Virus record (IMG/VR): IMGVR_UViG_3300034006_000006
Location: 1-36,727 of that record
Length of the DNA stretch: 36,727 bases
Direction: 5' to 3' (one strand)
Origin: a virus
Lineage: Duplodnaviria > Caudoviricetes
Part shown: positions 13,811-36,727 of the stretch, one piece after another
Numbering within the stretch: the first letter of the stretch is position 1
Layout of the letters: each line of letters starts with the position of its first letter
Notes under the pieces: generated by a model
What the model was told of the DNA's origin: nothing
The model's database searches: none
What the model saw: the letters and a program-made list of their open reading frames with translations, nothing else
Position numbers and translations under genes: made by a program

Positions 13811-13822
13811 CTGTAATTCATC

Positions 13823-17556: not shown

Positions 17557-17653
17557 CGTTATACGCTCATCCTTTCGGGAGATTAAGGTAAAGCGGAACC
17601 GGACGATGCTAACACAACACTACTTCCAAGTGTAACACAATACGGCCGCACGA

Positions 17654-17696
17654 AAGCCCGGCTACCTACTGCATGACAAAGCAGGAAACCGGGCTT
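17654..17696 (-). terminator. hairpin at the end of the tail operon
   Basis: AAGCCCGG…CCGGGCTT stem about 50 bp after the last tail-operon stop. Confidence 0.5.
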
Positions 17697-17744
17697 GTAT
17701 TATTTGCAGGCGAGTCGTTTAATCAATCACGGGGTTCTGGCCGA

Positions 17745-18541: not shown

Positions 18542-18555
18542 GTGACGTACTCCTC

Positions 18556-20598: not shown

Positions 20599-20610
20599 CG
20601 TTTCACCTCG

Positions 20611-21228: not shown

Positions 21229-21232
21229 TTAC

Positions 21233-22456
21233 TTAAACGACATTCACTGTCACGGTCACAAGCTTCGGCAGCTCATACGGCGCAACCTCTATATCAGCCA
21301 CAGGCTCGGCCAGAATCTCCCCGCCGGGCTGTGCCTCTATACGCCTGACTCCCTTTGTGCCTTCGATCACGGCGATGATCTCGCTTCTGGAGATGGTGCG
21401 ACCGAAGTTTTCCTCACGTGCGGAATAGAAATCCCTTAGATTTAATTCTATGGCCGCCAGCGTCGCGCTCTGAGTTATCAGGCCGTCGAGCTTTACATCG
21501 ACCTCGATATTGAACTCAACGAATTCCGGATCGCTGACGCTGATAAAGATGCCGCCGACCCATTCATTAGCCTTCTCTCTGGCCAGCGCTTTTACTTCGT
21601 CTGAGAAGGCGTGGCCGGTGCTCGTCATCATTACCACCGTGACGTAACCGGCCGTGGTCTTAATTGAGCCGTCAAGATTCAGCCAGTCGCCCTCTTTAAT
21701 TTTGTCGAAGACTTTGACTATACCGTTGCCGAGCAGCACCTCTTCCAGTATCGCTTCCTGTAAATCCTTCGCATTGACTATCCGCTCACCCCTGCGCTGA
21801 TAATGACGTACCCTCTCCAGAACAGCTTCTAAAGTCTCAGCGTCAGAGCCGGATTCAACTGCGTCAGGATTAGTTACGGCAGTGACGTAAAGCAGGGCAT
21901 CCACAATCCCCGTCACCGTGCCGGGAGCCAGCCTCACGCTGCCTGATGCCGTAGAGGTGGCCGAGACAGCCCCTTCCATTTCGCCTGCGGGAATCACCAG
22001 CTCTTCGTCGGTCGCAAAGACAGAGCCGTTTGTGGCGCGCGCTTCAGTCCCTGCCGGGATGATGACGTCAACTCCAGGAGGAGCAGCAGATGTAAAGAGC
22101 AGAGTAGTAGTAGCAGGTGTGGCTTCTCTCAGCTCTGCCCTGAAGAGGCGCGCAAACTCTATAACGTTCTGCTCCGGTACCTGATTGATGGCGCGCGTTA
22201 CGAAGCTGACGAGCCATGCAAAGGTCTCGATTAAGACTGTCTGCGGGCTGCCAGGCTCGGCATTTGTCAACTCCGCGCAGACTGGCGACGTAGGAAAGGT
22301 GCCAGCCAGCAGCATCTGCTTTGCCTCGAAGAGAACGGCAATATAGCGGTCGCAAAGTTCAGGCGTGAGTGCGCCGGAAACGCGCGCAATCGCCTGCGCC
22401 GCGAGAAGGTCTTCGTTTCGCACGTCCAGCATCGGTGCCTGAATAAGTTGTGCCAT
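21233..22456 (-). CDS. baseplate J-like wedge protein
   Basis: ATPATTTLLF…IPAGT…FATD…VTNPDAVESGSDAET…RIVNAKD; typical J-family pattern and position. Confidence 0.9.
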   Translation of the reverse strand: MAQLIQAPMLDVRNEDLLAAQAIARVSGALTPELCDRYIAVLFEAKQMLLAGTFPTSPVCAELTNAEPGSPQTVLIETFAWLVSFVTRAINQVPEQNVIEFARLFRAELREATPATTTLLFTSAAPPGVDVIIPAGTEARATNGSVFATDEELVIPAGEMEGAVSATSTASGSVRLAPGTVTGIVDALLYVTAVTNPDAVESGSDAETLEAVLERVRHYQRRGERIVNAKDLQEAILEEVLLGNGIVKVFDKIKEGDWLNLDGSIKTTAGYVTVVMMTSTGHAFSDEVKALAREKANEWVGGIFISVSDPEFVEFNIEVDVKLDGLITQSATLAAIELNLRDFYSAREENFGRTISRSEIIAVIEGTKGVRRIEAQPGGEILAEPVADIEVAPYELPKLVTVTVNVV

Positions 22457-22459
22457 CGA

Positions 22460-22897
22460 TTAGCTCCCAGTGAATTCAGGGCGAAGCTTCCACGCCGGGT
22501 AAACCATGCTGTGAGGCGTATTCGAGCCTCTTATCGTGTAAATAACCAGCAGCGCCGCTTGCTGCTGATCCAGAGAAAATTCTTGTATGAAGTTGCCATT
22601 TTCCAGAAAGCCCGGCCGGACGCTTATTGAAGAGATAATGGGCAGGTAATCCTTAACCTGCTCCTCCAGCTCGTAAGCCAGACGGGCCAGCCAGCCTGCG
22701 TCTGCTACCTGAAAGGTCGGGTCAGTTATGCCGTAGTCGGGAACCAGCACTCTTTCATAGCGCCGCGTCTCAATCAGGTCGGTTATGAACTGTCGAGCCA
22801 TCTCTTCCGGATCCGAGACAGTGGCCAAGCTGCCACGCGCATCCACGCGGAAAGGGAAAGAGAGGCATGAGCCGTGAATGCTCTTTACGGTCGCCAT
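22460..22897 (-). CDS. gp25/gpW-like baseplate (sheath initiator) protein
   Basis: LSFPFRVDARG…LIETRRYERVLVPDYG; start moved to the ATG at 22897 (TAATG overlap). Confidence 0.88.
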   Translation of the reverse strand: MATVKSIHGSCLSFPFRVDARGSLATVSDPEEMARQFITDLIETRRYERVLVPDYGITDPTFQVADAGWLARLAYELEEQVKDYLPIISSISVRPGFLENGNFIQEFSLDQQQAALLVIYTIRGSNTPHSMVYPAWKLRPEFTGS

Positions 22898-23439
22898 TAG
22901 ACAGCCCCCAGACAATTCATAGCGGTTTCGAGCCGCGAAGCCTGCGATTCCAACTCGCCGAAATACTGGTTGTAGCGCTCAATGAGCTTCGATTCAGTCC
23001 GGGTGCGAAGCTCTTCCGGGATGCTTTGCAAACCTGTTCTGAGTTGTTCCAGCTCTCCCATTCTGGCGTTAACGAAATTGATTCCCGCCTGTAACTCTTC
23101 AGTGACCTCCGCCACCGTCGCAGTTATTGCATTAACCATCGTCGCTATGTCGGCGGTGATTCGTACAATCTCTTCTGCGAAGCCAGCCGCGCGCGGTGGA
23201 TTGTCGAGCTGTCCGATGGTCATAGTGATGATTCGCTGCTCGTACTCTTTTTTCTTCTGCCGCAGATGATTGAGCCTCAGTATGTCCGGGCGGTTCCCGA
23301 AATTCCTGCCGATATAAGTCTGCCCGTCGCCGGAGAAGCAGCCGACAAAAGGCACGTTGATTGATGGAGCGTTAAACTCGCTCTGGATCGTTGGCACCTT
23401 CGCCGGGAGCCTTTGAATCTGCCCTGCTGCTATGCTCAC
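22897..23439 (-). CDS. hypothetical coiled-coil protein between spike and gp25
   Basis: 180 aa, coupled on both sides, helical C-terminal two-thirds, no PAAR motif. Confidence 0.65.
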   Translation of the reverse strand: MSIAAGQIQRLPAKVPTIQSEFNAPSINVPFVGCFSGDGQTYIGRNFGNRPDILRLNHLRQKKKEYEQRIITMTIGQLDNPPRAAGFAEEIVRITADIATMVNAITATVAEVTEELQAGINFVNARMGELEQLRTGLQSIPEELRTRTESKLIERYNQYFGELESQASRLETAMNCLGAV

Positions 23440-23924
23440 GCGCCACCCCCATCATCCACAGGACTGAAGATCAATCCGGCCGCTCCGCTAATCTGAACAG
23501 TCCCAAACTCGCTTTTTATGAGAACCCTGCCAGCCTGAAGCATTAGGTCACCTTCGCAGATAATCTTCAGGTCGCACGGGTATCTCAAGCAGGCGACACT
23601 TTCATCCGGAACGTCTTCAGGTAACGCCCCGGCCTCGTTGAATTGAGTCGTGTAGAACAGCTCATGCTTTCCGCCGGCGCGGCTCCACAGCGCCACCTCT
23701 ACGCCCCTCTGGGGAATGCTCGCAAAGCCATGCCCCTGCCTGCTGATGCTTCCGGGGAATGGTTTTATCCACTTTTCGCAGACCTCCGTTTCGCTGACGG
23801 CCGGGATGAGGACTTTAACCCTCCCGAGGTGTAGCGGGTCTTCATTGTCGGCGACGATGCCGTTCAGGCCATTAGGTAGACCAGACCGTCCGTCATCGTC
23901 TAGTTGTTCTGCCCTGCGGTTCAT
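23436..23924 (-). CDS. baseplate spike, gpV/gp5 OB-fold
   Basis: GIVADNEDPLHLGRVKVLIP…W…G…IPQRGVEV, followed by short beta-repeats. Confidence 0.88.
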   Translation of the reverse strand: MNRRAEQLDDDGRSGLPNGLNGIVADNEDPLHLGRVKVLIPAVSETEVCEKWIKPFPGSISRQGHGFASIPQRGVEVALWSRAGGKHELFYTTQFNEAGALPEDVPDESVACLRYPCDLKIICEGDLMLQAGRVLIKSEFGTVQISGAAGLIFSPVDDGGGA

Positions 23925-25053
23925 TTCTATTTCTTCTCCTTCTTCTCACTCCCGCAATATCACGCTTCAGTGTAAGTTCACAGCTAAACTCAGAAGGGCC
24001 AAGCGTATAAACGGCTTCTCTTACAATGTACTTTCCGCTATATAACGCACCTATGTTATTTAGTAGAACCGTATCGCCTTGAAACAACGGTATGCTGTTT
24101 TCAAGAAACTGAGGAAGTAGTTTGATGCGGTGTTCAAATGCGGATTCGCGTTGATTATAGCGGCGTGACCGTGCGCGGCGTCTCGCCTCTCTTTGTGTTC
24201 TAGTCGGTAAGTCTTCGGTCACATAGGATTGAGTTCCGCGCTCCGCTTCGCTTCCGTCTACGCCAGAAATACGACTGCCCGCCCGTCCCCTTGCTCTTAC
24301 TTCAACTCGCCCCTGACGACCTCTTTTATTTTCAGGTAGCTTATAAGTAAGGCTGAAACCGCGAAGCATTACAAAATCCCCGTTGTCACCTTTATATGTA
24401 AGGCTAGCTACAACTGCTCCCGTTCGTCCAGCTTCTTGCGCGTAAAGCTTATTACCGTTTGTGTACAATCGAAGCCCAGAGCGACGGGCGGCTTCTCTAG
24501 CAAGCTGCCAATCTGTTTGCTGAAATTGAAGGATTACGTCATGCTCTGCCGAGTCCGGCACGTTTCCGTTAATAACAAAGTCAAGGTCATGCTCTTTAGC
24601 GAGCTTTCTTAGCAGGTTAAGGTCTGTCGTTTTGTTGTGATACCTTGAATGCTTGCGCTGCTTCATCTTGTTAGATAAATCGTAGAAAGTGAACGTAGCT
24701 ATGTTGTTACTCCAAGAGTGGCGCGTAAGCATTCCCTGAAAAAGCGGGGGGAGTGTCGTCGGTTCATCAGAAGGCGAGCGATTAGATGCTAAAGTTCTGC
24801 GCGTTTGGTCGTGTGCTGTAGTTATAAATTCGCCTGCACCTATCCAGATTTTCACGCTTGACTTTTTCACGCCTGTAGAATCTAGGTGCGAATCAGTAAA
24901 TCGAAACTCAGGGTCATAGACGCTTATATTCGCCTCGCTTGAATGGTCTGTGCTTAGCTCTACCGACACTTGAGTAATAAGGCCGGGGTGCTTCCAAGAG
25001 TCCAGCAGTACATCATTCAATAAAACGAGTGTGTGTTTTTCTATTAGCGCCAA
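23893..25053 (-). CDS. baseplate hub, gpD/gp27-like (cassette-borne copy)
   Basis: LFQG…DLSNKMK…LAKEHDL…QFQQTDWQLAREAARRSG…GDTVLLNNIGALYSGKYIV; directly upstream of the spike. Confidence 0.87.
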   Translation of the reverse strand: MALIEKHTLVLLNDVLLDSWKHPGLITQVSVELSTDHSSEANISVYDPEFRFTDSHLDSTGVKKSSVKIWIGAGEFITTAHDQTRRTLASNRSPSDEPTTLPPLFQGMLTRHSWSNNIATFTFYDLSNKMKQRKHSRYHNKTTDLNLLRKLAKEHDLDFVINGNVPDSAEHDVILQFQQTDWQLAREAARRSGLRLYTNGNKLYAQEAGRTGAVVASLTYKGDNGDFVMLRGFSLTYKLPENKRGRQGRVEVRARGRAGSRISGVDGSEAERGTQSYVTEDLPTRTQREARRRARSRRYNQRESAFEHRIKLLPQFLENSIPLFQGDTVLLNNIGALYSGKYIVREAVYTLGPSEFSCELTLKRDIAGVRRRRRNRNEPQGRTTRR

Positions 25054-25080
25054 GAGGTTTATCTTTCCTTTACTTATAAC

Positions 25081-28000
25081 TCAGCTTCGCTCGTCATATT
25101 TCGCCTCTATATATCGCATCCGGCTTTCAAACTCAGCGAACAGTTCATCTTTGCTTTGGTCTAGTAGTTGTCGAAGCTTCGCTACCGATTCAGCATTTTC
25201 TTTAGAGCTTCCCGTAAACGTCGCGTTAATGTTCGGAGAGTAGTTCAAGTTAACTTGCGGTGCTGTAAAGCTGCCAGAAGGAACCGAAGACTGATTGACG
25301 TAAGCTGCCTCTGAGTATGCAACCTCTCTTAAAAGCTCCCTACCTCTTAACGAGCTTGTGCTGGGTAGATTTAACTCAGGTCGGTTTCGGGGAATCGTTA
25401 ATGCTTGATTGCTTCTCTTTCTGTCGGCATTAAGAGCGCGAGTCGATACCACAAACTTCTGTAGTTCATCGTTTGGAGTAACGAAGCCGTTAGCGTTTGG
25501 AGTGAATAGCTCAACGCCGCGCTCGCCTCCGATGTAGTCAACGCCTTTAAGAACTCTCCCGCCTTTAGCAAAGTAGCCGCCGAAAGGTCTAACGTTCGGA
25601 GTGCTGCTTGTCTGATTTGAAGGCGTTGGAAAAGCGGGGAACGTTGGTCGCTCTATGACAATAGAATTTACTCTGTCGGCTAAACTCTGAGCAGCCGAAG
25701 AGACGTTCCTGAATGCGGGGGGAATCTTATTAGCAGGGTCAACGCACTGGCCGAAAGCGTCTGCGGTCTGCTTGGCAGGCTCGGTAATACGGAGCAGGCT
25801 TTGTGCAAATTCCGGCATCCCCTGTAATCTTTTCTCGTCAAGCTGTTTGAGGTTGCCTATGCCAGTATTAGGAAGCGAGTTGATGAATACTGCTTCTATG
25901 GCTCGCTTTATGTTCTGCTGTCCCTCAGAAGATAATCCGAGTTGTGGTAGCTCGGTCTGAATAAAGCTTTGTCTTACATCTGGAATAGCTAGTTGAGGCG
26001 CGAATCGTTGAAGCATCTCTCTGTCTGTAGGTAGCGGCCCGTTACCATAAAAGGGTCTTGCTAATTTTCGATAAAGATTATTCTCAAACTCTTTAACAGT
26101 GAATATGCCTTCTGCTCTGCTGAGTTCGCCGCCGCGTGTTAGAGCCTCACGAACAGAACGCGCCGACGCTGCATAGTCAACGCTCTCCCCTCTCTCTCTC
26201 CTTTGTGTAATGTCTGCTAGCTGCGCGCTTGCGCCCCGCTCTACTCCTAATTGCTGCCTGTAGGCTTGCACGTTCTTGTAGCTTGCGAATGCACCGCCAG
26301 CAATAGCCATGATGCTAAAGGTCACAGGATTAGTAGCAAGGCCAGCAGCGCCGACAGCGCCCCGACCTATCAGACTTGCTCCGCCCGCAGCTACTTCCGA
26401 GTTGATGCCTCCGCCGCCACTTCCACCGCGTAACATACCGTTGAAAATGCCAACTCCGTCTGCGGCCTCCGCGCTCGCTTTACCTAAGCTTAGTATGCCA
26501 ATCAGGGCTGCGGCTGTTGTGGGGTTATCCGCAGACATAGCTTGAAGGCTCTTGATTTGATTTGATAGCTGCTCTGCTACGTTTCCGCCTAATGACATAA
26601 CGGGAGCGCCAGCCGCAGCCCTCGCATTCGTTTGTGAGGCTGTAAATTCTAAGAACTGTCCGAGCGGGTTTCCCCTCTCGAACATTGAACTATAAAAGCC
26701 CTCAATATCAGGAACTCTCATATAGTTCTGCGTCTCTTTGTCTAACTGCCTCCGCATGAGCATCATCTGTGCTACTTCACGCTTTGCCGTGCGGTTGCCG
26801 AACATCACTTCTAATTGTTTGGCTACAGCTTCTACGTTCGTAGTGTCAACGCCCTTCCTATCGAAAGCAGCCATTAACTTATCTGTGAAGATAAACGGGT
26901 CACGGCCCATTCCTTCGGCTATAGGGATAGCGCCGGGAAGCAGACGCGCAATCTTGCCCTGTTGATTGAACTCAACTTTTGAGCGGTCAAGCAGGCCCAT
27001 CTCACCCCAGTATTTAAGTTTATGTGCGGGGATTTGCCCGCCGACAACTGAGCTATAAAGAGAGGTGAGAGCAGTTCCGGCATTCTTGCCGCCCATTTGC
27101 TGGATAAGCGGCATAAACTTCATTATACCTTCCGGCGAGAACTGCATACCTACAATCTGACCCTGTTTGACGAAGTTGCGAAGCTCCGAAGGATTGACCT
27201 CTCCACCCGTAGCCAGATTTGATTGAGCTATGAGATTCAAATACTGCTTAGCGGTAGCGGTATCAATATCCTTGCCCATGAGTTCGACGGTTTTAGCGGC
27301 ATTGCTGAACGCTCTAATAGCCTCTTGACGGCCTACCCTGTCGCCGTTTAGCGCCTCTGTGGCTGCTAGGAATTTAGAGGCTTGAGGTAGCAACGCTATA
27401 GCATCATTAACGCTGCCCATAGTGCCCGTAAGGTTCGTGAGTAGTTCCGTCACGTCTACCTGACGCACGCCCCTTATTTGAGATGTTACTTGCTGTACTG
27501 CCTGCAAACCTCTGGCCTGCTCAGCTTGTGGATAGTTGAGCATTTGAAAATTGGTCTGTGCGCGTTTGAGTTCAAGGGCAGGGTCAATGAAGCCGCCCCT
27601 TACCATGTCATAGGTGCGTTGTGCAACATAACCGATATTGCGAGCCGTCTGCACTCCCCTGTTAAATCTGTCTACGTTGTCGTAGTCGCCGGATGCGCGC
27701 CGACCTCTGCGGCCTGTGCGTCCAGTCGCTCTAGCTGCTTCACGCTCTAAGCGTGCGCGCTCTCTTAGCAGTTTAATATCTGCTATCTCTGCGGAGCGTT
27801 GCGCGCCAGTGGCCCGCGCTTTGGTTTGAGTAAGCCTAGCCTGCTCACGTTCTAAACGAACGCGGTCTTGCATCAGCTTGACTTGCTCACGCACGGCGCG
27901 AGTCTCGCGGTTTAATGCTGTAGTAGTAGCTCCGCTCTTTGGCAGAGCGCTCTTAGGCAGGCTGCTATTAGGCTTTAGTTTGTTGAGCGCTCTTTGAAGT

Positions 28001-28119
28001 GATGTTGCCTCTTTATTCGCGCCGCGCAGTTGCTTAGTGAGAGCAGAGATACGCTTCTCCGCTTGGCCTTGAACCAAGAATTGAAGGATAAGCTTGTGTG
28101 TTTCAGAGCCTCTAGCCAT
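25081..28119 (-). CDS. tail tape measure protein (cassette copy, 1012 aa)
   Basis: Long Ala/Gly-rich helical protein with hydrophobic segments, C-terminal FAKGG…GERGVELFTP motif and NLNYSPNI; follows a chaperone gene. Confidence 0.85.
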   Translation of the reverse strand: MARGSETHKLILQFLVQGQAEKRISALTKQLRGANKEATSLQRALNKLKPNSSLPKSALPKSGATTTALNRETRAVREQVKLMQDRVRLEREQARLTQTKARATGAQRSAEIADIKLLRERARLEREAARATGRTGRRGRRASGDYDNVDRFNRGVQTARNIGYVAQRTYDMVRGGFIDPALELKRAQTNFQMLNYPQAEQARGLQAVQQVTSQIRGVRQVDVTELLTNLTGTMGSVNDAIALLPQASKFLAATEALNGDRVGRQEAIRAFSNAAKTVELMGKDIDTATAKQYLNLIAQSNLATGGEVNPSELRNFVKQGQIVGMQFSPEGIMKFMPLIQQMGGKNAGTALTSLYSSVVGGQIPAHKLKYWGEMGLLDRSKVEFNQQGKIARLLPGAIPIAEGMGRDPFIFTDKLMAAFDRKGVDTTNVEAVAKQLEVMFGNRTAKREVAQMMLMRRQLDKETQNYMRVPDIEGFYSSMFERGNPLGQFLEFTASQTNARAAAGAPVMSLGGNVAEQLSNQIKSLQAMSADNPTTAAALIGILSLGKASAEAADGVGIFNGMLRGGSGGGGINSEVAAGGASLIGRGAVGAAGLATNPVTFSIMAIAGGAFASYKNVQAYRQQLGVERGASAQLADITQRRERGESVDYAASARSVREALTRGGELSRAEGIFTVKEFENNLYRKLARPFYGNGPLPTDREMLQRFAPQLAIPDVRQSFIQTELPQLGLSSEGQQNIKRAIEAVFINSLPNTGIGNLKQLDEKRLQGMPEFAQSLLRITEPAKQTADAFGQCVDPANKIPPAFRNVSSAAQSLADRVNSIVIERPTFPAFPTPSNQTSSTPNVRPFGGYFAKGGRVLKGVDYIGGERGVELFTPNANGFVTPNDELQKFVVSTRALNADRKRSNQALTIPRNRPELNLPSTSSLRGRELLREVAYSEAAYVNQSSVPSGSFTAPQVNLNYSPNINATFTGSSKENAESVAKLRQLLDQSKDELFAEFESRMRYIEAKYDERS

Positions 28120-28135
28120 TAGCTACACTACCTCT

Positions 28136-28783
28136 TTAATTAGCCGCCGCTTGCGCTACCTCTTCATTTTCGGCTGCTTCGTTGAAGCTGTCAGAGTAAC
28201 GGAGCGATGTTTCGCGCAGGGCTAAAATATCTACCATGTCCATCTCTTCCAGAACGGTCATAGGTAACGGGCAGGGAAGAGAGAGCGCTCCGTCTTGAGT
28301 GGTAAAACTGATAATCTCTTTTCGGAGTAAGTAGCAGACACGTTTCATTCCCGTATAGCGTTTGTCGTCTGCTTCAATCTCATCAAAGCCTGTAAGTAAG
28401 TAGCCAAACTTAGCGACGTTGTAAATAGAGCCGTCACGCTCAATTCCAAAAGCGAGTCTGACAGTATCATCAGAGATTATTTCAACCTCGCGCTCTTTTG
28501 ACGTTTCGCGTATGAAGTCCTCATACGCTTTAACAAGCCGTTCCCTGTCTATTGAAACTAAAGAAAGAAAAGCCTTCATAGGGAAAGGCTCTTTTAGCTC
28601 TCCAAAGCTCACAGTCGCCGCCCGATAAAACGGTAAGTCTGTCACCGAAGGGGTCAACCCTTTTAACTCTTCGTCAATCTCAAACAGGTCGCGCCCCTTT
28701 ATACGTCGCCCTATCGTGGCGCTTTTATGCTCTTTGCCGTTCTCGTCAGTGTACCCTCTGAGAAACTTGACCGATTGCTGCAT
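28136..28783 (-). CDS. tail assembly chaperone, tandem gpE/Mu gp41-like domains
   Basis: Two similar halves (VKFLRGYTDENG…IKGRDLFE…LSLVSIDRERL / VRLAFGIERDG…LTGFDEIE…LEEMDMVDILAL); directly upstream of the tape measure. Confidence 0.65.
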   Translation of the reverse strand: MQQSVKFLRGYTDENGKEHKSATIGRRIKGRDLFEIDEELKGLTPSVTDLPFYRAATVSFGELKEPFPMKAFLSLVSIDRERLVKAYEDFIRETSKEREVEIISDDTVRLAFGIERDGSIYNVAKFGYLLTGFDEIEADDKRYTGMKRVCYLLRKEIISFTTQDGALSLPCPLPMTVLEEMDMVDILALRETSLRYSDSFNEAAENEEVAQAAAN

Positions 28784-28834
28784 TGTTCAACTCTCCCTGC
28801 GTCAATTTTCTTTTTTCGACTCGTATAAAAGACA

Positions 28835-28872
28835 AGAAGCCCGCGATGCGTTTAGTGCATCAACGGGCTTCT
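28835..28872 (-). terminator. leader terminator/attenuator hairpin upstream of the chaperone gene
   Basis: AGAAGCCCG…CGGGCTTCT stem followed on the minus strand by TGTCTTTT. Confidence 0.6.
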
Positions 28873-28898
28873 ATTGAGCCTCTTAGGATTGCTATTTA

Positions 28899-28958
28899 GG
28901 CGCTCTACTTCGGCGCTCTATGTGAAGTGGATTATATCAGAGAAGCTTGCTTTGTGAA
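28899..28958 (-). promoter_or_regulatory. sigma70-type promoter plus tandem TAGAGCGCC repeats (candidate Com box)
   Basis: Minus strand: TTCACA (28958-28953), 16 nt, extended -10 TGaTATAAT (28939-28931), then TAGAGCGCC twice (28920-28912, 28907-28899). Confidence 0.55.
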
Positions 28959-28970
28959 GAAATATTTTTC

Positions 28971-29348
28971 CTATTGAAACGCTACTGTGATGTTCTCGAT
29001 TCTCCATATAGAGCTTTCTCTGGTTAGCGCGATAATGCTTTTCCCGCCGCATTTCCACTGAATCACAACCTCTGCGGATTCATGTATGACGGTTTCGTTT
29101 ATTATCTCAAACCCTTTGCCTTCACATTCCAGATAAGTCTTACGGGTAGCAGCCGAAAGCGCCCTTAAACCTGCTACCTCTTGACTCTTGGTAGCGCTTG
29201 AAGAGTAGTATTGAATAGAGCCTTCGATATTCCCTTGCTCAAGTTTGCCCGCCCAGCCCTTCACAGTGTCAGAAGGAGAAGACAGAGAACCGCAGGCAAT
29301 AATTAGAAGGCAAAGGGGAATTGATATAAAACTATGCGGGCGAGCCAT
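28971..29348 (-). CDS. lipoprotein, NTF2-like (DUF4878-like)
   Basis: Lipobox LIIAC, SPSDTVKGW, terminal LTRESSIWRI. Confidence 0.7.
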   Translation of the reverse strand: MARPHSFISIPLCLLIIACGSLSSPSDTVKGWAGKLEQGNIEGSIQYYSSSATKSQEVAGLRALSAATRKTYLECEGKGFEIINETVIHESAEVVIQWKCGGKSIIALTRESSIWRIENITVAFQ

Positions 29349-29366
29349 GCGCCGAAAGGTAGCACA

Positions 29367-29567
29367 TCAGCCCTTTTTCTTTCCAGCTTTCTTAGTTGAC
29401 GGTCTGCCTGCCTTGCGATTCTCTACTAGCTTCAAATCCTTCTCGTCTATCACATAATCGCGGCCTATCTTTTGGGCAGGCAAGCGCCCTTCACTTATTA
29501 ACTGATAAATTCTTGGTTGGCTAATACCTAGCCGCTCGGCAGCTTGTTGAGTGGTGAGTAAGTTCAT
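29367..29567 (-). CDS. excisionase-like HTH DNA-binding protein (probably leaderless)
   Basis: LLTTQQAAERLGISQPRIYQLISEGRLPAQKIGRDYVI; GRP tail. Confidence 0.9.
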   Translation of the reverse strand: MNLLTTQQAAERLGISQPRIYQLISEGRLPAQKIGRDYVIDEKDLKLVENRKAGRPSTKKAGKKKG

Positions 29568-29574
29568 GCGGCGG

Positions 29575-29658
29575 ATTATAAGCCAAAATTAACCCTATGA
29601 CAAGCCATATTATTTTGTTGACAAAACCCTATGATGTATCATAGAATAATCCCTAAGT
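29575..29658. promoter_or_regulatory. divergent promoters with repeated operator-like sites
   Basis: Minus: TTGTCA-17-TATAAT (29603-29575). Plus: TTGACA-18-TAGAAT (29618-29647). AACCCTATGA at 29591 and 29625; ATCCCTAAG at 29649. Confidence 0.7.
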
Positions 29659-29682
29659 TAGTCACACGAAAGGGCGAATCAA

Positions 29683-29889
29683 ATGAGCAAACTTGAGCAG
29701 GCAAAAAGCAAGCTGCGGTTCATAGGCAGAACGCTTAACAGGGGATTCATAGACGCGGAAACCTTAGAAGAGTTGAGCCGCGCATCATTCAACGCGCTTG
29801 AGCTATTAAATGAGCATGAAGAGGAAACCCTACAGCTTCCCCGCATAGCTGAGGCTTCCACTGTTGTCATTTATCAGCCGAACGCATAA
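29683..29889 (+). CDS. hypothetical protein
   Basis: First ORF after the plus-strand promoter; AAGGG RBS. Confidence 0.6.
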   Translation: MSKLEQAKSKLRFIGRTLNRGFIDAETLEELSRASFNALELLNEHEEETLQLPRIAEASTVVIYQPNA

Positions 29890-29894
29890 GAAGC

Positions 29895-29930
29895 GAGAGC
29901 TTAGGAAAGCAGCCACTTCCCTAAGCTCTC
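29895..29930 (+). promoter_or_regulatory. intergenic hairpin (attenuator/RNA structure)
   Basis: GAGAGCTTAGG…CCTAAGCTCTC, 11-bp perfect stem. Confidence 0.55.
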
Positions 29931-29961
29931 ATTCACCATTTACCACTTGAGAGGGGTAACG

Positions 29962-30582
29962 ATGAGTAGAAAAGATAACACAAGCAACAAGGCGCTTCAA
30001 AGCGATGCGCTTTTAATCTTTAACACAATCCACGACAAGGCCACCCCAAAGGCCATACGGGAAGAGATAGGATACTACGCTGACGACGTACTTAACATCT
30101 CTCCGCTTGTCCCTGACCTATGGTCAGACAGGGAACTTTTTGTCGCGTGCTTTGTTGACGGCATGAAGAGGGCCACGGAGGAACCTTACACTTATAGCCG
30201 CGATACGGTTAGAGAGATTGTAGAGAGCCTTAAAAAAGGCGAGACGCCCGAAGAGATAATAGCCAGATTTAATGAGGCTCGAAAGCGTGTCGCATCGGAG
30301 CGACTTAACGCGCCAGAGCCTAAAGATAAGTCTTCAAACGACTGGCGCGTCTGGAAAGTCCGACAACTTGAACGCGCCTTCAATGGCACAGACGCCAAAG
30401 CCTACGATGCTGCTTGGACTGAATACCAAGCCTTGCTGCGCGGTTTGGTTAGTGACCGTCAGTTCTATCACGTCTCATACGCTCTAGCCTTACTGCCTCA
30501 TCTGCTCGCGGCCCGTCAAGAGATAGACGCGACGATTGCCCGCGAAAAGCGGTCTAGCCAGAAGAGAGGGGGTAAGAAGTAA
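29962..30582 (+). CDS. hypothetical helical protein
   Basis: ATG after GAGGGG; coupled to the next gene. Confidence 0.65.
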   Translation: MSRKDNTSNKALQSDALLIFNTIHDKATPKAIREEIGYYADDVLNISPLVPDLWSDRELFVACFVDGMKRATEEPYTYSRDTVREIVESLKKGETPEEIIARFNEARKRVASERLNAPEPKDKSSNDWRVWKVRQLERAFNGTDAKAYDAAWTEYQALLRGLVSDRQFYHVSYALALLPHLLAARQEIDATIAREKRSSQKRGGKK

Positions 30583-30911
30583 TGGCTCCGAGAAAAGAGG
30601 CGGCAAAGCCTAGAACTCGCGCTAAAGCTGCGGAAGACAAAAGAGAAGGCTTGCATTTAACCTACGATGAAGCGAAGCGCCTTATCTCAACTCTTCCCTA
30701 TATGAGCATCGAAGGCGACGGGGCAGTAGCGACACTTCTGCTGCTCATGTATTCAATGGTCTATCCGGCTGACGGTGCTAGCTATGCGAAGCCCGAAGAC
30801 CTTTACCATCTAGTCTCTACAGAGCTTTTGTCATTGACGAGCGCCTTAGACGCTTTACATAAAATAATGAGGCGTCGGCTGTCTGCTATTGAGAAAGGAG
30901 CGGCACAGTAA
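30582..30911 (+). CDS. hypothetical protein
   Basis: TAATG coupling, basic N-terminus. Confidence 0.6.
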   Translation: MAPRKEAAKPRTRAKAAEDKREGLHLTYDEAKRLISTLPYMSIEGDGAVATLLLLMYSMVYPADGASYAKPEDLYHLVSTELLSLTSALDALHKIMRRRLSAIEKGAAQ

Positions 30912-31054
30912 TGCACAAACACCTCTGCTCTCGCTGCCCTCGCCAGTTTGAATGCTCAGAGTCGGCCTGTGCTGAGTTTGAATTTTCAATCTGTTCTGAG
31001 TGTAAGGATAAAGCTCAGAAGAAGAAGCAGAAGAGACGTAAGAGAGCATAACCT

Positions 31055-31082
31055 AGAAGGCGGCTACCCGACAGCCGCTTCT
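31055..31082. terminator. hairpin upstream of the HNH gene
   Basis: AGAAGGCGGCT…AGCCGCTTCT imperfect stem. Confidence 0.4.
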
Positions 31083-31101
31083 CTCAAAACTATTTTGAGT
31101 C

Positions 31102-31413
31102 ATGCGCGACCCCTTACTACATGAGACACGCAAGAAGTGGAGAGCGTTTCGCCGCTACATAGCCATGCTGCACTACGGAGCGCGGTGTGTATGCTGCGGT
31201 GAAACGCTCTCTATAGCTCTCACTTTTGACCATGTAGAAGGCGGGGGATGCAAGGAGAGAAAGCTTGCAACAAGAGCTATCACGGAGGGCTACCCCGCTC
31301 GCTTTCAAGTCCTCTGCATGAACTGTAATCACGCTAAGGCAGACAACGGGAAATGCCCGCATCAGGTAATACGAGAATTGGAACATAAAATATTTTTGAG
31401 TCACCTGAATTAA
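31102..31413 (+). CDS. HNH endonuclease
   Basis: CVCCGE…LTFDHV…QVLCMNCNHAK. Confidence 0.8.
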   Translation: MRDPLLHETRKKWRAFRRYIAMLHYGARCVCCGETLSIALTFDHVEGGGCKERKLATRAITEGYPARFQVLCMNCNHAKADNGKCPHQVIRELEHKIFLSHLN

Positions 31414-31425
31414 GGAAGAGACAAG

Positions 31426-32469
31426 ATGAGACATTTAGTTTCAGAAGCAGAAAGACTTGAAATCGCCAGTAGGTTTGAATCGAAAGAAAGCGTTTCAAAT
31501 ATAAGCGGCGTTATGAAGCTATCTTGTGCGACTATATATAATCAATTAGCTAAAATGGGAATTGCGCGCCGTCGCTGTGGGTTCAATGAAACCGAGCTAC
31601 AGAAGATATGCGATGAGTATGCCAGTGGAAAGTCAGCAGAGGTAATTGCCAACAACATAGGCGCGTCAAGCTCTTCTATTCTTGGCGCTCTCAAAAGATG
31701 CGGTATTTCACCACGCACAGCATCAGAGCAAGAACAATATCGCAACCGCAGAAAACATAATCTTAACGAAAACGCTTTCGACAAACCATCAGAAGAGCGG
31801 AACTATTTCATAGGGTTAATGATGGCCGATGGATGCGTAGTAGAGAGCAAACAGGGTCTAGGCCAGCGTAGAATACAACTTGCCCTTAACGAAGAAGATA
31901 AAGAAATAGTTGAGCGTTTCAAGTCTTTTCTTTCCTCCACGCATACTATTTGTTATCAAAAAGCGAGACTATCAAGACACGCTCGCCGCCCGAACGAATT
32001 TATAAACTGCCGCCCGCATGTTGTATTTTCGGTTAGCTCTGATAAGCTCGCACAAGCCCTTATCTCATTCGGCGTAGTACCGCGCAAGAGCAAGACCGCA
32101 AGCGTTGTGGGGCTGGAAAATGACAGACACTTTTGGCGCGGTGTCATAGATGGTGACGGTTCGTTAGGGGTTCGCAAGCAGAAAGGCAGGCGAACATCTA
32201 GCCCTAGACTAACTCTCGTTGGCAGCCACGACCTAATGCAGCAATTTATTGAATTTGCTAAACGGAATGCGCCCGGAAATCAAGTCAAAGTTTGCTGCTA
32301 CGATGGATTGTACAGAGTTGATTTAACGGGGATTTATGCTATTCAAATTTGCAAGGTAGTTTATCAAGGGTCTAAGGTTTCAATTTCCAGAAAGCTAGAG
32401 ACTGCTAATTCGATAATAAAACTTGAGCATGAATGGAAACCGAGGTATAGAAAGCGGATTACACAATAA
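31426..32469 (+). CDS. LAGLIDADG homing endonuclease with N-terminal HTH repeats
   Basis: Two motifs, YFIGLMMADG and FWRGVIDGDG; GVVPRKS; terminal SRK; two HTH-like repeats N-terminally. Confidence 0.9.
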   Translation: MRHLVSEAERLEIASRFESKESVSNISGVMKLSCATIYNQLAKMGIARRRCGFNETELQKICDEYASGKSAEVIANNIGASSSSILGALKRCGISPRTASEQEQYRNRRKHNLNENAFDKPSEERNYFIGLMMADGCVVESKQGLGQRRIQLALNEEDKEIVERFKSFLSSTHTICYQKARLSRHARRPNEFINCRPHVVFSVSSDKLAQALISFGVVPRKSKTASVVGLENDRHFWRGVIDGDGSLGVRKQKGRRTSSPRLTLVGSHDLMQQFIEFAKRNAPGNQVKVCCYDGLYRVDLTGIYAIQICKVVYQGSKVSISRKLETANSIIKLEHEWKPRYRKRITQ

Positions 32470-32486
32470 CTTACGAAGTGACATTC

Positions 32487-32663
32487 TCACTGTCGCCTCA
32501 CTTCAACGGTAGACGAACGATTAAAGCCGCTTGACTTAGTAATGGTATTCAGCTTTTTACATCCTTGCTTTCGACACTTGAGGCGCAACGTGCCTGTAAA
32601 ATCAAAATCTTCGCTTGTTTCAGCAAGGATTTTACCGCAGGCTTTACACTTGATTTCTTTCAT
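32487..32663 (-). CDS. Mu Com-like zinc-finger regulator (58 aa, not in the ORF track)
   Basis: Manual translation: MKEIKCKACGKILAETSEDFDFTGTLRLKCRKQGCKKLNTITKSSGFNRSSTVEVRRQ, matching the Com pattern IxCxxCGKxLA…KCxxxCKxxN. Confidence 0.75.
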   Translation of the reverse strand: MKEIKCKACGKILAETSEDFDFTGTLRLKCRKQGCKKLNTITKSSGFNRSSTVEVRRQ

Positions 32664-32711
32664 TGGATGTTGTTGCTATTAAATTACCCTTACCGAACTT
32701 CGGCCTAATAG

Positions 32712-32777
32712 CTAGTCGAACGTGACGCCGTTTATCTCCACCACGTAATGATGGTCGTCAAGAAAGCCTTCGCTCAT
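32712..32777 (-). pseudogene. 5' stub of the resident baseplate hub (gpD-like) gene
   Basis: ATG overlaps the LysM stop (ATGA); MSEGFLDDHHYVVEINGVTFD* aligns without gaps to the cassette hub N-terminus LIEKHTLVLLNDVLLD; sits where the hub is expected. Confidence 0.65.
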
Positions 32778-33025
32778 AATGAATCGTAAAGCCCGCTCTC
32801 GACGGGAGCCTCCGGAATAAGCAGAATCGTGCCGGGCTCGAGCCTGCGCGGGTCACTGATGTTGTTCCTGTCGGCTATCTCGCGCCAGAACCTGCGGTCG
32901 CCCCAATACCTGTGACAGATGCCGTCTATATTCTCGCCGAAAGCCACGACGTGTATTTGAAGGCGCTCCTCGGCCTGAGGATTAAATTGGCCGTATCGCC
33001 TGAATGGACTGATGCTCTTTCCCAT
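32774..33025 (-). CDS. LysM / gpX-like baseplate protein
   Basis: HVVAFGENIDGICHRYWGDRRFWREIADRNNISDPRRLEPGTILLIP. Confidence 0.9.
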   Translation of the reverse strand: MGKSISPFRRYGQFNPQAEERLQIHVVAFGENIDGICHRYWGDRRFWREIADRNNISDPRRLEPGTILLIPEAPVESGLYDSL

Positions 33026-33546
33026 TAGAAATTCCCAAGCGGCGAGAAGTCCGCCGCTTCTTCCGGGTCTATCTCTACAACTCTGGACGTGACCTGTTCC
33101 CTCAGGTCAGGCATTTCAAGCAACGTCATCGAGACGCGCGCACGCTGCTGGTTGTTCTCCGCAGTAAAGCTCGTGCGCTCGATCTCCAGTTCTTCAAGCG
33201 TGCAGCGCACCTTCCAGTCGCCGCATATCATCAACAGAAGCGGCGGCCTTCCTTTTTCCTTCTGCCTCATCAACGCGCGTATCTGCTCAATGGCTTCTGT
33301 CAAAGAAAGATTTGTACCGACCGTGTCCAGCCAGCACTCGTCGAAAGAAATTTTCTGAGGCTCGGAGTTTGAGAACTGTGGGGGCTTTACTCCGCCGACG
33401 GTGTCGGCCAACTCCCAGTTATTCCTGTCCGAAGTCTTAATGCTGGAAGGGAAGGGGAGTCCCACGTCGCCCTCCTCGACGTCAAAGACGAAAGTGCCTG
33501 ACTGGCGCAGGTTGATGAGAATCAGTTTTTTGCCCTTGCGTGTCAT
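33025..33546 (-). CDS. gpU-like tube initiator / tail protein
   Basis: FPSSI…KPPQFSNSEPQKISF…PPLLLMICG…LEIERTSF…RARVSMTLLE; between tape measure and LysM. Confidence 0.78.
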   Translation of the reverse strand: MTRKGKKLILINLRQSGTFVFDVEEGDVGLPFPSSIKTSDRNNWELADTVGGVKPPQFSNSEPQKISFDECWLDTVGTNLSLTEAIEQIRALMRQKEKGRPPLLLMICGDWKVRCTLEELEIERTSFTAENNQQRARVSMTLLEMPDLREQVTSRVVEIDPEEAADFSPLGNF

Positions 33547-36500
33547 CAGCTTCTCTCGTCGTCTCTCTCTTCCCTGTAATACAGCCTTGTCTCCAGTTCC
33601 TCGAAGAAATCATCCTTGCTGCTGGCCAGCGCCCGCTCGGCGGCCGCTTGTGCCAGGGCCTGTAGCTGTGCAGGGCTGTGATTGCTGCCCGTAATTTGCA
33701 GGCTGATGTGGGGGGCAAAGGTTATAGGGCCAATCGACTTAGAAGAAGGAGTAGAAGCGTTTACATATAACGACTCTCTACTTGAAACACCATCAGCGCT
33801 TCTAGCTGATAAAACGGGGATTTGATTGCTTCTCCCGTCGGCGTCAAGAGCGCGAGTCATTACCAGGTACTTCTTTAGCTCATTGTTCGGAGTGATGAAT
33901 CCGTCAGCGAAAGGCGTATAGAGTTCGATACCGCGCTCGCCTACAGGGTAAGAGATGCCTTTGAGCACGTGCCCGCCCCTTGCTTTTCCCGGCCCCGTCG
34001 TTGGATGTGTAGCCCCGCCAACTATTGAACTTACATTCGGGATAGTCCACGCAGGCGGAGTAAGGTCTATAGCATTCATCCTGTCGGCAAAGCTCTGCGC
34101 TGCTGTAGCGCCGTTGCCAAGTGCAGGCGCGAGTTTCAATGCGGATTCTGTATTTTGATTGAGAGCTTCGCTTGCCTTTTGGGACTGTTCGGCTAGTAAG
34201 TTGGTAGCCTCTCCATATTTCTGAGGGAAAGCCTGCTTGACTAAATTTTCGAGATATTGTTTGCCTTCGGGTTGAACGTCCTGACGCGCCCTTGTTTGAC
34301 GTATGAACTCAGCCATAACACCAGCGTCTGCACCTAAAATCGGTGCACGCTGGCGAATCAGCGAAACCTTATTTGCATCATCAGCGCCGTAGAAAGGATG
34401 GTAGTCAGGAAGTATTCCCGCCATGCGCAAGGGATATAGGATCGGTTGAGCGCCTAAGTATCCCTGTGTAATTTGCGTCAATAGGTCTTCCCCGCGTGGG
34501 ATATTGAGAGCGTTCATTAAGAACTCACTCAATCCACCACGCATTGAGCCTGCTAGCGAGCCTTCAATATCAATCTTTGAAACAGCAGATGCAGCTTCAG
34601 AGGTTATGAACTGGCTTGGCATGGGCATGCCCGCTTCAGCATATTTCTGCTTTAACCTAAGAAATCTATCAGCGTCCTTTGCATTAGAGCTCATCAAATC
34701 TTTGTAGATTTTATGGTATTCCCTGTAGGCGTCTACGAACTCTTTCAACTCATACAGCGTGTAGCCCACAGAAGCGATAAGCAACGTAAACTGCATTGTC
34801 TTGGGTAAAGCATTAAGCTTGCCCATGACTCCGTTGACTCCGATAGCGCTACGTTCGGCTGCCGTCATCCCTTCCGCTGCGGCTTTAGCACCGCGACCCC
34901 AGCCCGAAAACATTCCAGCGAGGCCTCCGAGATGGTAAGAAGTCTCAAGGATTCCCGTCAGAGCTTTGCCGCCAATAAGGAGATAGAATCCCCACTTTGC
35001 CAGCGTCGGGTGCTGCTCGAAGACGGCCATCAGTGCGCTGCCCTTATCAACCAGCTTCGTTACAACCTCCAGCAGCTTCACCCCCTGCTCAGCCTGAAAA
35101 TTAAAGAGCGCGGCCTGAAATTTCTGATACTTGCCCATGGGGGACTGGTCTGCGCGCTGGTACATCTGCTCCAGTCCTTCAGACCTTTGCATCTGCTCCA
35201 CGTCTTTAGAGATGTTCTGTCTGAGCAGAATCATCTTTGCGAGCAGGTCGGCCGTGCCTCGATTGCCGGTTATCTGAGAGAGCACGCGTCCTACATCTCC
35301 GGCGTTAGTCATATCCACCGGCCGACCCAAGACGTTTTGTCCCTTCTCTTTAATTGCCTTAGCCAAAGCATCCGCAAACTTGATTGGATTTTCGCCCAGC
35401 AAATCAGCAATCGGGAGTGCGCCGGGGCTAAGCTTCTTGATTCTGCCTTCACGCGAGAACTCTGCAAGACCCTTAGTGCGCAGCACATCATTGGAAGGTA
35501 GAAGCCCGAGGCGCTGCAAAGCGTCGGCAGCGCGTGCGCCGCCTGCGCCCTGCCGGAAAGCCACGAATGACTGAAACGCGCTCATCAAGCGGGTGCCGAC
35601 GGCGGAGCCTCCCATGGCCTCCATCATCGATGCCATGTGCATCAGGCCCTCGGGAGAGACGCCCATAGCGGAGACGCCGCCGCGCCCTACGAACTGGAAC
35701 ATCTCTTCGCCGCCGATTCGGCCGCCTGTGTAAGCTTTAATTCGTGTGATAGCGTCTAGGTAAGCCTCAAACCGTTTTGTGTCCACGCCGCCGCCCGGAA
35801 GCTGGCGTATAGCGCCCATCTGCTCGAGCGCTTTCATAGTCTTCAGGATGTCGGCTTCGAGTTGTTCCGGATCGGCTTCAAAGAGCGTCTGGAAGGTGAA
35901 TCGCATCTTCCCGGCTGTAGGCAGCATAGCTGTAGCCTGCCTCATATCACCGAAGACGCTCTTTAATCCGACGAGGTCTTCCGTCAGCTCGTCTATGCGG
36001 GTGCCGCGCACTTGGCGGACAGTATCAGCGACGGCTCGAAGGCCAGCCGTCGTATCTTCAGGGGATAAGCGAAGTGTGTATAATTTCTGTTGTGCCCGGA
36101 TAACAGAAAAGGCCGCGTCAGTATATTTCTCCAGAGAATCGATGCGGTCGCGCCACGTCGAGGCCACCATCCGGCCGGACATGTATGCGTCGCCCGCGCG
36201 TCCTGCCCGGTCAAGGAATCTAGATGCTCTGCCGGGAGTTCGTCTGGTTTGTTCTTCTCTGTCTCTTTCTGCGCGCTGGGATCTGAGGAAGTCGTTAGCG
36301 GCGCGGCGTGACTCCTGATTTCTTACTCGAGCCAGACGACGAGCTGCAACATCCCTAACGCTCTGCTGCGCGGCAGCCTGCCGAGCCGTCTGCTCGCGTA
36401 TACGCTGTGCTTCACGCGCCGCCCGCGCCTCTTCACGCGCCGCACGTGCGCTATCGCGTGCGGCGCGTGAGGTAGACGGAGAAGCGCCCGGCGGCGTGAC

Positions 36501-36662
36501 TCTTGTGGAGTTTAATTTGTTGAGATTTTTAAGAAGGGATTGAGCCGCTTTGTCGGCTGCACGCAGATGCTTTGTGATGGCTGCGAGACGTTTTTCAGGC
36601 TGTCCCTTGAGTAGGAACTCCAGAATTAACTTATGCGTCTCTGAACCAGCTCTTTTTGCCAT
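33546..36662 (-). CDS. tail tape measure protein (resident copy, 1038 aa)
   Basis: Helical, Ala/Arg-rich, hydrophobic segments, C-terminal ARGG…VGERGIELYTP; coupled to the gpU-like gene. Confidence 0.87.
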   Translation of the reverse strand: MAKRAGSETHKLILEFLLKGQPEKRLAAITKHLRAADKAAQSLLKNLNKLNSTRVTPPGASPSTSRAARDSARAAREEARAAREAQRIREQTARQAAAQQSVRDVAARRLARVRNQESRRAANDFLRSQRAERDREEQTRRTPGRASRFLDRAGRAGDAYMSGRMVASTWRDRIDSLEKYTDAAFSVIRAQQKLYTLRLSPEDTTAGLRAVADTVRQVRGTRIDELTEDLVGLKSVFGDMRQATAMLPTAGKMRFTFQTLFEADPEQLEADILKTMKALEQMGAIRQLPGGGVDTKRFEAYLDAITRIKAYTGGRIGGEEMFQFVGRGGVSAMGVSPEGLMHMASMMEAMGGSAVGTRLMSAFQSFVAFRQGAGGARAADALQRLGLLPSNDVLRTKGLAEFSREGRIKKLSPGALPIADLLGENPIKFADALAKAIKEKGQNVLGRPVDMTNAGDVGRVLSQITGNRGTADLLAKMILLRQNISKDVEQMQRSEGLEQMYQRADQSPMGKYQKFQAALFNFQAEQGVKLLEVVTKLVDKGSALMAVFEQHPTLAKWGFYLLIGGKALTGILETSYHLGGLAGMFSGWGRGAKAAAEGMTAAERSAIGVNGVMGKLNALPKTMQFTLLIASVGYTLYELKEFVDAYREYHKIYKDLMSSNAKDADRFLRLKQKYAEAGMPMPSQFITSEAASAVSKIDIEGSLAGSMRGGLSEFLMNALNIPRGEDLLTQITQGYLGAQPILYPLRMAGILPDYHPFYGADDANKVSLIRQRAPILGADAGVMAEFIRQTRARQDVQPEGKQYLENLVKQAFPQKYGEATNLLAEQSQKASEALNQNTESALKLAPALGNGATAAQSFADRMNAIDLTPPAWTIPNVSSIVGGATHPTTGPGKARGGHVLKGISYPVGERGIELYTPFADGFITPNNELKKYLVMTRALDADGRSNQIPVLSARSADGVSSRESLYVNASTPSSKSIGPITFAPHISLQITGSNHSPAQLQALAQAAAERALASSKDDFFEELETRLYYREERDDERS

Positions 36663-36727
36663 CGCTATCTTGCATCTGGATCATTAAATGAAAGAGAAGA
36701 AGTAGAAGAAGCCCTGAAGCAATCCTA

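Follow-up and report, generated by a model that had tools for sequence, protein, structure and literature searches.

A nested, integrase-less tail-core cassette in the tail operon of a contractile-tailed phage, and its possible descent from satellites

The window analysed here is the whole of IMG/VR virus record IMGVR_UViG_3300034006_000006 (36,727 nucleotides), which is contig C44 of phage genome G000. Its tail operon is interrupted by an insert of ∼8.8 kb that encodes a tail assembly chaperone (TAC2), a second tape measure protein (TMP2) and a baseplate hub. Related cassettes recur at several kinds of site in other genomes, and comparison of their gene content indicates that the conserved mobile part of these cassettes is their tape measure protein (TMP). 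Overall, we put even chances on the cassette being a mobile, integrase-less and satellite-derived spare tail core, one that would let the phage evade guides, blockers and sensors directed against its TMP or tail assembly chaperone (TAC).

Along the minus strand the resident operon runs from the tape measure TMP1 (1038 aa, 33546..36662) through a gpU-like tube initiator of the CIS_tube family (33025..33546) and a LysM (gpX-like) baseplate protein (32774..33025) to a hub stub of 21 codons closed by TAG (32712..32777). After the insert it resumes at the gpV spike (23436..23924). A sister phage, G003:C256, provides the empty allele: its LysM-hub-gpV junction is intact, 16 of the 21 stub residues (76%) are identical to the N-terminus of its hub, and its gpU-like and LysM proteins are 76% and 84% identical to those of the window. 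DNA identity to G003 stops sharply after stub codon 21, which places the left junction at ∼32,713. On the right, identity is 33-69% per 100 nt over the hub and 72-92% from the 5' part of gpV onward; because it recovers inside the 5' part of gpV, the right junction is placed at ∼23,870-23,924. No direct repeat was found flanking the junctions. GC content falls from ∼0.55 outside to 0.45-0.52 in the insert, and at third codon positions it is 0.40-0.55 in the cassette genes against 0.61-0.70 in the flanking tail genes, with TMP1 at 0.56. A tblastn search detected no second hub homologue in G000, leaving the cassette hub (386 aa, 23893..25053) as the sole intact hub of this phage.

That the locus is an assembly chimera, or that an intron is spliced out to restore the resident hub, is very improbable. 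In favour of an artefact, the source is a metagenome-type assembly. However, window positions 17,000-36,727 lie in a single contig that spans both junctions at even depth (23-26) with no alternative joint in two of three assembly runs; these two spanning assemblies amount to the agreement of a second assembler and may share source data, so they are not an independent sample. The design also recurs in other genomes. Against an intron, group I/II or otherwise, no Rfam intron match was found in the insert, and splicing is not needed because the cassette hub has its own N-terminus, which aligns with the stub. Both explanations were rejected on contig support, the Rfam result and the repetition of the stub region by the cassette hub. 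We likewise rejected plain duplication of the operon, since the insert lacks gpU and LysM. The first-pass annotation, made from the window alone, had described this interrupted gene order, taken the stub for a genuine hub start, argued against simple duplication and proposed that relatives be searched for an empty allele and the junctions for read support; on all of these points it was borne out.

Within the insert, again on the minus strand, TAC2 (28136..28783) precedes TMP2 (1012 aa, 25081..28119), which is 30% identical to TMP1 overall and matched to it at the termini, and the hub follows. This chaperone-TMP-hub order had also been called correctly. The hub model (pLDDT 81) is predicted to fold like the hub domains of Mu gp44, T4 gp27 and VgrG (E 2e-21 to 1e-14). 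The TAC2 model (pLDDT 92) matched Mu gp41 (E 1.6e-3, probability 1.00) and a named tail chaperone, pointing to a chaperone fold, while a PDB search with it returned no match. TAC2 is a short, G-only form that has neither the slip site nor the -1 frame T extension of a frameshifting TAC. On the far side of the cassette, a helix-turn-helix (HTH) domain fused to a LAGLIDADG endonuclease (31426..32469, plus strand) points at the stub with both of its LAGLIDADG motifs intact, and an HNH endonuclease of 103 aa lies beside it (31102..31413, plus strand). An excisionase-like HTH_17 regulator is encoded at 29367..29567 (minus strand). Family scans of the insert genes found no integrase and no rep or TerS gene; two endonucleases, a regulator and the lack of an integrase were thus all as first annotated. 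The nearest kin of the insert is the cassette of G003, which occupies a different site and shares 71-84% DNA identity, with 78% identity in the TMP, 77% in a predicted lipoprotein and 58% in a 68-aa protein. Between the two, dN/dS is 0.13-0.17 for TMP2 and 0.17 for the lipoprotein, which indicates that both are under purifying selection.

To place the insert among its relatives we used a chaperone profile, which matched 27 of the 401 family genomes. Of these 25 were fetched, two weak matches (G220 and G491) being left out, and G093, G038 and G510 were added from other searches. All are uncultured assemblies, and the cassettes and phages are known here from their genes. In a class sample, matches were confined to two families (7/401). 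This gave 12 nested cassettes without an integrase, which occupy five kinds of site and come from 10 genomes, namely nine of the 25 fetched and G093. Seven of them add an extra module, at the hub (G000), gpW (the second cassette of G492, where the contig join is inferred without an exact overlap), MuF (G567 and G597) or the Mu transposase (G514), before the sheath (G473) or beside a protease (G093). The other five (G003, the first cassette of G492, G430:C198, G430:C179 and G486) lie immediately ahead of the sole TMP that was seen; contig ends cut two of them, and in G430:C179 the TMP is split between two frames. In the usual plan one strand carries a nuclease and small genes, and the opposite strand, on the other side of a divergent promoter, carries an HTH regulator followed by defence-like cargo and then the tail genes; in G567 the nuclease shares its strand with the tail genes. 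Among 39 proteins scanned, seven were cargo of the TIR, TIR-TM, Shedu, PD-T7-4-like or type IIG restriction kinds, and there was also an IrrE/CapP-like protein. Beyond these genomes, viral contigs searched with the window hub, P0004 and the G492 TMP yielded no relatives, and searches of them with a TMP alignment and P0003 returned only a copy identical to G003. A metagenome scan (60 of 64 parts) gave one locus, and no GenBank phage matched the hub.

Two relatives stand alone. G378:C17 encodes ParA, a rep protein, an HTH protein, a TerS-like protein, TAC, TMP, hub, spike and a TrwC relaxase, and L062 encodes a TerS-like protein, TAC and TMP; together they are candidates for a new satellite family. 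The G378:C17 locus (19250-29991) is plasmid-like, also carries TraD, and has no capsid, tube or sheath gene.

The gene set kept by the extra modules (n = 8, the seven nested ones and G378) was determined by six-frame profile searches. An intact TMP is present in all eight, the hub in six, the TAC in six and the spike in two, while gpU, LysM, tube, sheath and gpJ were found in none. Resident hubs, in contrast, have gpU and LysM within 4.2 kb in 22 of 22 cases, so the layout of the window is not one common to all relatives, a possibility that would have undermined the first-pass annotation. TMP and hub are separated by -4 to 27 nt in 6/6 modules, although in G514 that adjacency is the resident order too. 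We disfavour neutral mosaicism, in which recombination brought in tail genes of another phage as a block and the redundant ones are decaying at random, and consider it improbable. It would accommodate the repeated origin of extra modules, the split TMP of G430:C179 and the grouping of four of the six extra hubs with their own host lineage (support 96-100). Yet genes were not lost at random: in every module gpU and LysM have left no remnant whereas TMP is intact; TMP and hub also remain tightly spaced, and the dN/dS values are low.

The components of the modules have different histories. In the TMP tree there are two clades (SH-aLRT 100), one of which holds 12 of the 14 cassette or stand-alone TMPs, three TMPs without known context and 2 of the 21 residents, TMP1 included; 13 of 500 shuffles were as clustered. 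Nineteen residents fall in the other clade. Both stand-alone elements have their TMPs in one sub-clade with TMP2 (support 99), and their TACs are the ones with which TAC2 groups (89/88); like TAC2, these have neither T frame nor slip site. Every resident TAC (25 of 25) has the -1 frame T extension. Four of seven extra TACs, TAC2 among them, have neither it nor the slip motif. The hubs tell another story: the four extra hubs that group with their host lineage do not group with each other, and the G378 hub is sister to the G492 phage hub.

In contractile tails the TMP C-terminus docks on the hub. For the last 40 aa of the cassette TMPs, the TMP of the same host ranked first of 20 residents in 5/5 cases, as against 3/5 for the first 40 aa. 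The cores of cassette and host TMPs are mostly 10-45% identical in G000, G567, G514 and G473, and far closer in G093. The G003 TMP joins a TMP2-like body to last 60-70 residues that are TMP1-like. Because C-termini match the host and hubs belong to host lineages while the cores diverge, the mobile part is probably a foreign TMP core with a hub-facing end compatible with its host.

How such a module could have entered the window locus can be outlined. TAC2 and TMP2 would derive from a lineage also found on stand-alone TerS-TAC-TMP-hub-spike elements. Entry may have combined a homologous crossover on the right, within the hub or 5' gpV, with a left join that was non-homologous or made by a nuclease. 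Given a right arm in hub and gpV, a left join would have been viable only downstream of LysM, and this would account for the stub. The loss of the resident hub therefore looks like a by-product of insertion. The first-pass annotation had proposed that the cassette makes tail assembly depend on its hub; as a fact this stands, the cassette hub being the only one left in the phage, whereas as a purpose it is not supported, because the targets in sister cassettes are gpW, MuF, the Mu transposase or the TAC-TMP junction and the hubs are host-like. For subsequent spread, relatives lacking the cassette would be cut by the outward-facing nuclease, and stub and gpV would act as homology arms. Spread by homing is plausible, as 10 of the 12 cassettes carry a nuclease (LAGLIDADG, HNH, TnpB or a weakly matched PD-(D/E)XK type). 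A lone LAGLIDADG gene of the same family lies between sheath and tube in G436:C237 (58173-59138) with no tail-core module, showing that the nuclease can travel alone.

The same observations could be explained by a selfish drive with addiction, in which the cassette spreads by homing, destroys an essential gene and supplies the sole copy, so that tail genes are retention devices and homology arms; we regard this as unlikely. Consistent with it are the four kinds of nuclease and the truncated or duplicated target genes found beside diverged copies, which comprise the hub in G000, gpW in G492 (33/45 aa), Mu A in G514 (185/271 aa) and MuF in G597 and G567. The distal tail genes also now lie behind predicted cassette promoters. 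TnpB fills the nuclease slot in G473, G514, G093 and G430:C179, three of these genes being translationally coupled to the small genes of the cassette's left operon, and these are possibly domesticated TnpB proteins. Their putative guides matched only their own flanks, however, with no empty site among the loci compared. The drive also leaves unexplained why an extra TMP is kept intact where MuF, gpW or a transposase is the gene hit, and why C-termini match the host and guides are aimed at TMP genes.

Those guides are the evidence for conflict over the TMP. The cassette of G003 encodes a 208-aa protein that we take to be a Vipr, based on a RAMP-like G-rich motif, and the sister cassettes of G003 and G486 contain GGY-NN tracts. 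We searched ∼1 Mb of fetched loci using the published rule of a 1-nt skip at the codon wobble position and a match of >80%. Two of the five cassette guides reached this level, and their predicted targets lie in frame 0 of TMP genes. The six best matches of guide G003_B are all TMP genes, at one motif and in codon register, the best being 24/28 (0/150 shuffles as high). P0003, P0004 and G378 have the motif; the TMP of G003, TMP2 and TMP1, on which the guide scores 17/28, 15 and 17, do not. For guide G486_B (15 units) the top matches are three cassette TMPs (25, 24 and 22 of 30; 0/150 shuffles), against 17/30 on its own TMP. Guide G003_A resembles a chaperone motif, scoring 17/26 against its own TAC, but not significantly. 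The two G486 tracts (G486:C26 1531-1805) lie directly 5' of a zinc-ribbon gene and TMP with no Vipr gene on the contig, and are candidate solo vrRNAs. Neither of two Vipr homologues outside G003 was seen in a tail cassette, one of them being on a 3.3-kb contig.

If the cassette is a spare tail core, TAC2 would coat TMP2, which would dock on the cassette hub, and the resident G-T chaperone, gpU, LysM, tube and sheath would be borrowed. The benefit would be escape from guides, blockers and sensors directed at TMP or TAC, including a weapon carried in the cassette's own cargo slot. Such threats have precedents: swapping the TMP rescued phage DMS3 from Tab, Rta targets the TMP, and Avs17 and Avs18 sense TAC and TMP. 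Elsewhere in the family the resident TMP seems to have given way to that of the cassette.

Alternatively, the tail-core genes might themselves be the weapon, expressed in the lysogen or on superinfection to poison or divert the tail assembly of incoming relatives, as a stowaway satellite would. We hold this to be distinctly unlikely. It fits the predicted promoter and attenuator of TAC2-TMP2-hub, conserved in G003, and the expectation that a G-only TAC would compete for TMP; the top three matches of the G486 guide are cassette TMPs, as expected if these were worth silencing, and Tai and Tab show prophages blocking tail assembly. However, in 5 of the 12 cases the cassette TMP stands where the resident would be and no other TMP was seen, so there it must act as a normal ruler, and the TMP of PLE satellites builds functional tails. 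The homing-addiction, weapon and mosaicism explanations can overlap.

Several observations weigh against the spare-core explanation. The cassettes were found through TAC and TMP searches, biasing the frequency of tail genes upward, so the constancy of TMP is partly a matter of ascertainment, and the counts overstate significance because kin are not independent. Two cassette TMPs fall in the clade of the 19 residents, the grouping of TAC2 with the stand-alone TACs is below the threshold for firm support, three of the seven extra TACs keep the T frame, and TAC comparison indicates that the extra modules have several origins. The window cassette has no recognised defence gene in the defence scan of its cargo, and neither it nor G000 has a Vipr protein or GGY-NN tracts. 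Five of the seven guides (G003_A, G003_C and G486_A from cassettes, G528 and G025:C40 from VIPRs outside cassettes) did not score above shuffles. As first called (11 units), G486_B matched at 17/22 with 17 of 40 shuffles as high, which is non-significant, and it was lengthened along the visible GG phase after that result. An exact scan found a perfect target of G003_B in 0 viral contigs. Silencing TMP1 at the DNA level could moreover cost the phage the downstream gpU and LysM as well. Two unpublished genomes contribute to the analysis: G473 supplies one cassette, a hub pair, a C-terminus rank, a resident TMP of the cassette-rich clade and the second G486_B match, and G018 supplies one intact junction and the second G003_B match. 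The conclusions stand without them. Going further, we suggest only tentatively that the cassettes form a new class of element, 'stowaway satellites' that live inside the helper genome, are moved between related phages by a nuclease (LAGLIDADG, HNH, TnpB or PD-(D/E)XK) in place of an integrase, pair an anti-TMP weapon, such as a VIPR guide, a lipoprotein or other cargo, with their own immune TMP that fits the hub of the host, and in time replace the phage's ruler with theirs.

The remaining parts of the window cassette lie between these modules. Next to the stub is a Com-like zinc finger (58 aa, 32487..32663, minus strand), and a predicted DUF4878-like lipoprotein occupies the cargo slot (28971..29348, minus strand); both are additions to the first-pass annotation. 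The zinc finger recurs: cassettes of G003, G492 (twice) and G430 have it at their left end, and in Mu-like residents it follows MuF. Plus-strand genes encode the 68-aa protein (29683..29889, followed by a 17-bp stem at 29894-29931) and proteins of 211 aa (29947..30582) and 109 aa (30582..30911) with no family match.

Divergent sigma70 promoters are predicted at 29575..29647 (two 11-of-12 matches), and in all three 11-of-12 matches fall in the expected intergenic gaps, in keeping with the earlier suggestion that the cassette has its own promoter; the total of eight matches nonetheless equals the shuffle mean of 8.0. Upstream of TAC2 (28781-28958, minus strand) a predicted extended -10 promoter (28958-28931) is followed by a short conserved leader and a strong terminator-like hairpin (28872-28834, z -4.3), together spanning 28834..28958, a layout also present in G003. 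This leader and hairpin are a possible attenuator, and one may speculate that the Com-like zinc finger acts on the leader. A 19-bp palindrome occurs four times in the phage, at window positions 8928, 16439, 31082 (31082..31100, 5' of the HNH gene) and 31383 (31383..31401, 5' of the LAGLIDADG gene), and the rest of the genome has just two weakly similar sequences. Its position in G003:C256 is 27747, within the hairpin before the cassette TMP. It is a candidate repressor operator that would link the cassette to phage regulation.

The contig C44 is partnered by C45, which carries the resident head, sheath, tube and chaperone genes, likewise additions to the first-pass annotation. Overlaps of 128 nt at all four contig ends, which stem from a 154-bp repeat with two inverted copies, join C44 and C45 (depth 23-26 and 24-28) into a closed graph of ∼66.8 kb. 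By its gene content, the phage is contractile-tailed and temperate, and possibly plasmid-like (tyrosine recombinase, O-like rep, Mob_Pre relaxase). Window positions 10428-16312 encode the Mob_Pre relaxase, the tyrosine recombinase, the O-like replication protein and an AAA ATPase, which together with the closed graph suggest a possible mobilisable phage-plasmid. The exact 154-bp inverted repeat lies just outside window positions 1 and 36727, has a depth of 36-44 against 24-28, and contains the chaperone T frame; the other copy runs in frame into an unrelated ORF of 141+ aa at the far end of C45. A crossover between the copies would invert the head-sheath-tube half relative to TMP1-gpU-LysM. 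An operon at 5593-8394 (plus strand) contains prokaryotic E2, JAB and ThiF/E1 genes that are 45-47% conserved in G003. Elsewhere, G000:C6 (∼623-650 kb) holds a separate chromosomal baseplate locus of contractile-injection type, distant kin of the phage genes.

In summary, the module known from satellites also moves the other way, into phage genomes, repeatedly and always without gpU and LysM. TMP-hub(-TAC) thereby stands out as a unit that can be exchanged, in which it is the TMP C-terminus that has to suit the host. The family offers natural matched pairs, with two TMPs in one phage and with guide, target and immune allele. If the spare-core explanation is true, parasite-derived copies can take the place of essential virion genes through phage-satellite conflict, and this would be a directed route to phage mosaicism.

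A nested tail-core cassette was not found in the literature searched, where most subscription papers and the bioRxiv supplements were outside reach. Prophage-borne conflict over tail assembly and the TMP, with a need for self-immunity, is described for Tab/anti-Tab, Tai/Ati and the superinfection-exclusion lipoprotein Ltp (PMC10884400, PMC11364771, PMC3952083). A lipoprotein adjoins the cassette TMP, resembling Ltp by type only; library scans detected no homology of the window cargo to any of them. They use small counter-defence proteins, whereas here the conflict would involve a second TMP and hub.

Free-standing homing endonucleases and homing endonuclease gene (HEG) islands place interchangeable nucleases beside essential tail genes, with co-conversion of flanks and a cut site that may be distant (PMC2988022, PMC10448857), and intronless homing uses flanking homology arms (PMC2988022). 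HEG islands swap a locus for near-identical DNA between two nucleases (PMC10448857, PMC2988022), whereas the cassettes add a 30%-identical extra TMP, regulators and cargo at varying sites. Like a homing cassette, the insert has an intact endonuclease (LAGLIDADG) beside an essential gene whose empty allele exists in a relative (the G003 hub). It differs from an HEG island, with nucleases at both ends and identity often >90%, since its nucleases are at one end only and its identity to G003 falls short of that level.

The PLEs of Vibrio cholerae are separate integrating replicons with their own replication and packaging functions. Unlike them, the insert is part of the tail operon of the phage itself, where it took away the resident hub, and it encodes no integrase, rep or terminase. 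The first-pass annotation had likened the insert to PLE satellites, and aptly: PLE11 encodes the same set of TAC, TMP and hub, built into chimeric tails, and the gain from the satellite's own tail genes is described there as unknown (PMC12987554). Like the insert, PLE contributes three tail-core genes (TAC, TMP and BhuB) and no gpU, LysM, tube or sheath. By reported figures these PLE genes are 20/20/41% identical to those of the helper, and the divergence is similar here, where the TAC is 37-39% and the TMP 30% identical to the resident, and the hub 51-54% to the sister hub. F5 satellites of coliphage SUSP1 have only a TMP and a baseplate protein, and VIPR guides mediate phage-satellite conflict (bioRxiv 10.64898/2026.04.26.720920, 2026.10.15.759431). 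Sister cassettes similarly carry Vipr-like genes or solo guide tracts; in the F5/VIPR case, however, a phage guide silences the satellite's excision recombinase, whereas the guides of these cassettes are predicted to target TMP genes, and a phage genome houses the tail module. The insert shares with PLE and F5 elements its own tail-core genes without capsid, tube or sheath. It has neither an integrase or recombinase with att sites nor the replication and packaging genes of a separate replicon, and for this reason it is not a member of those families, yet it would work like their tail module.

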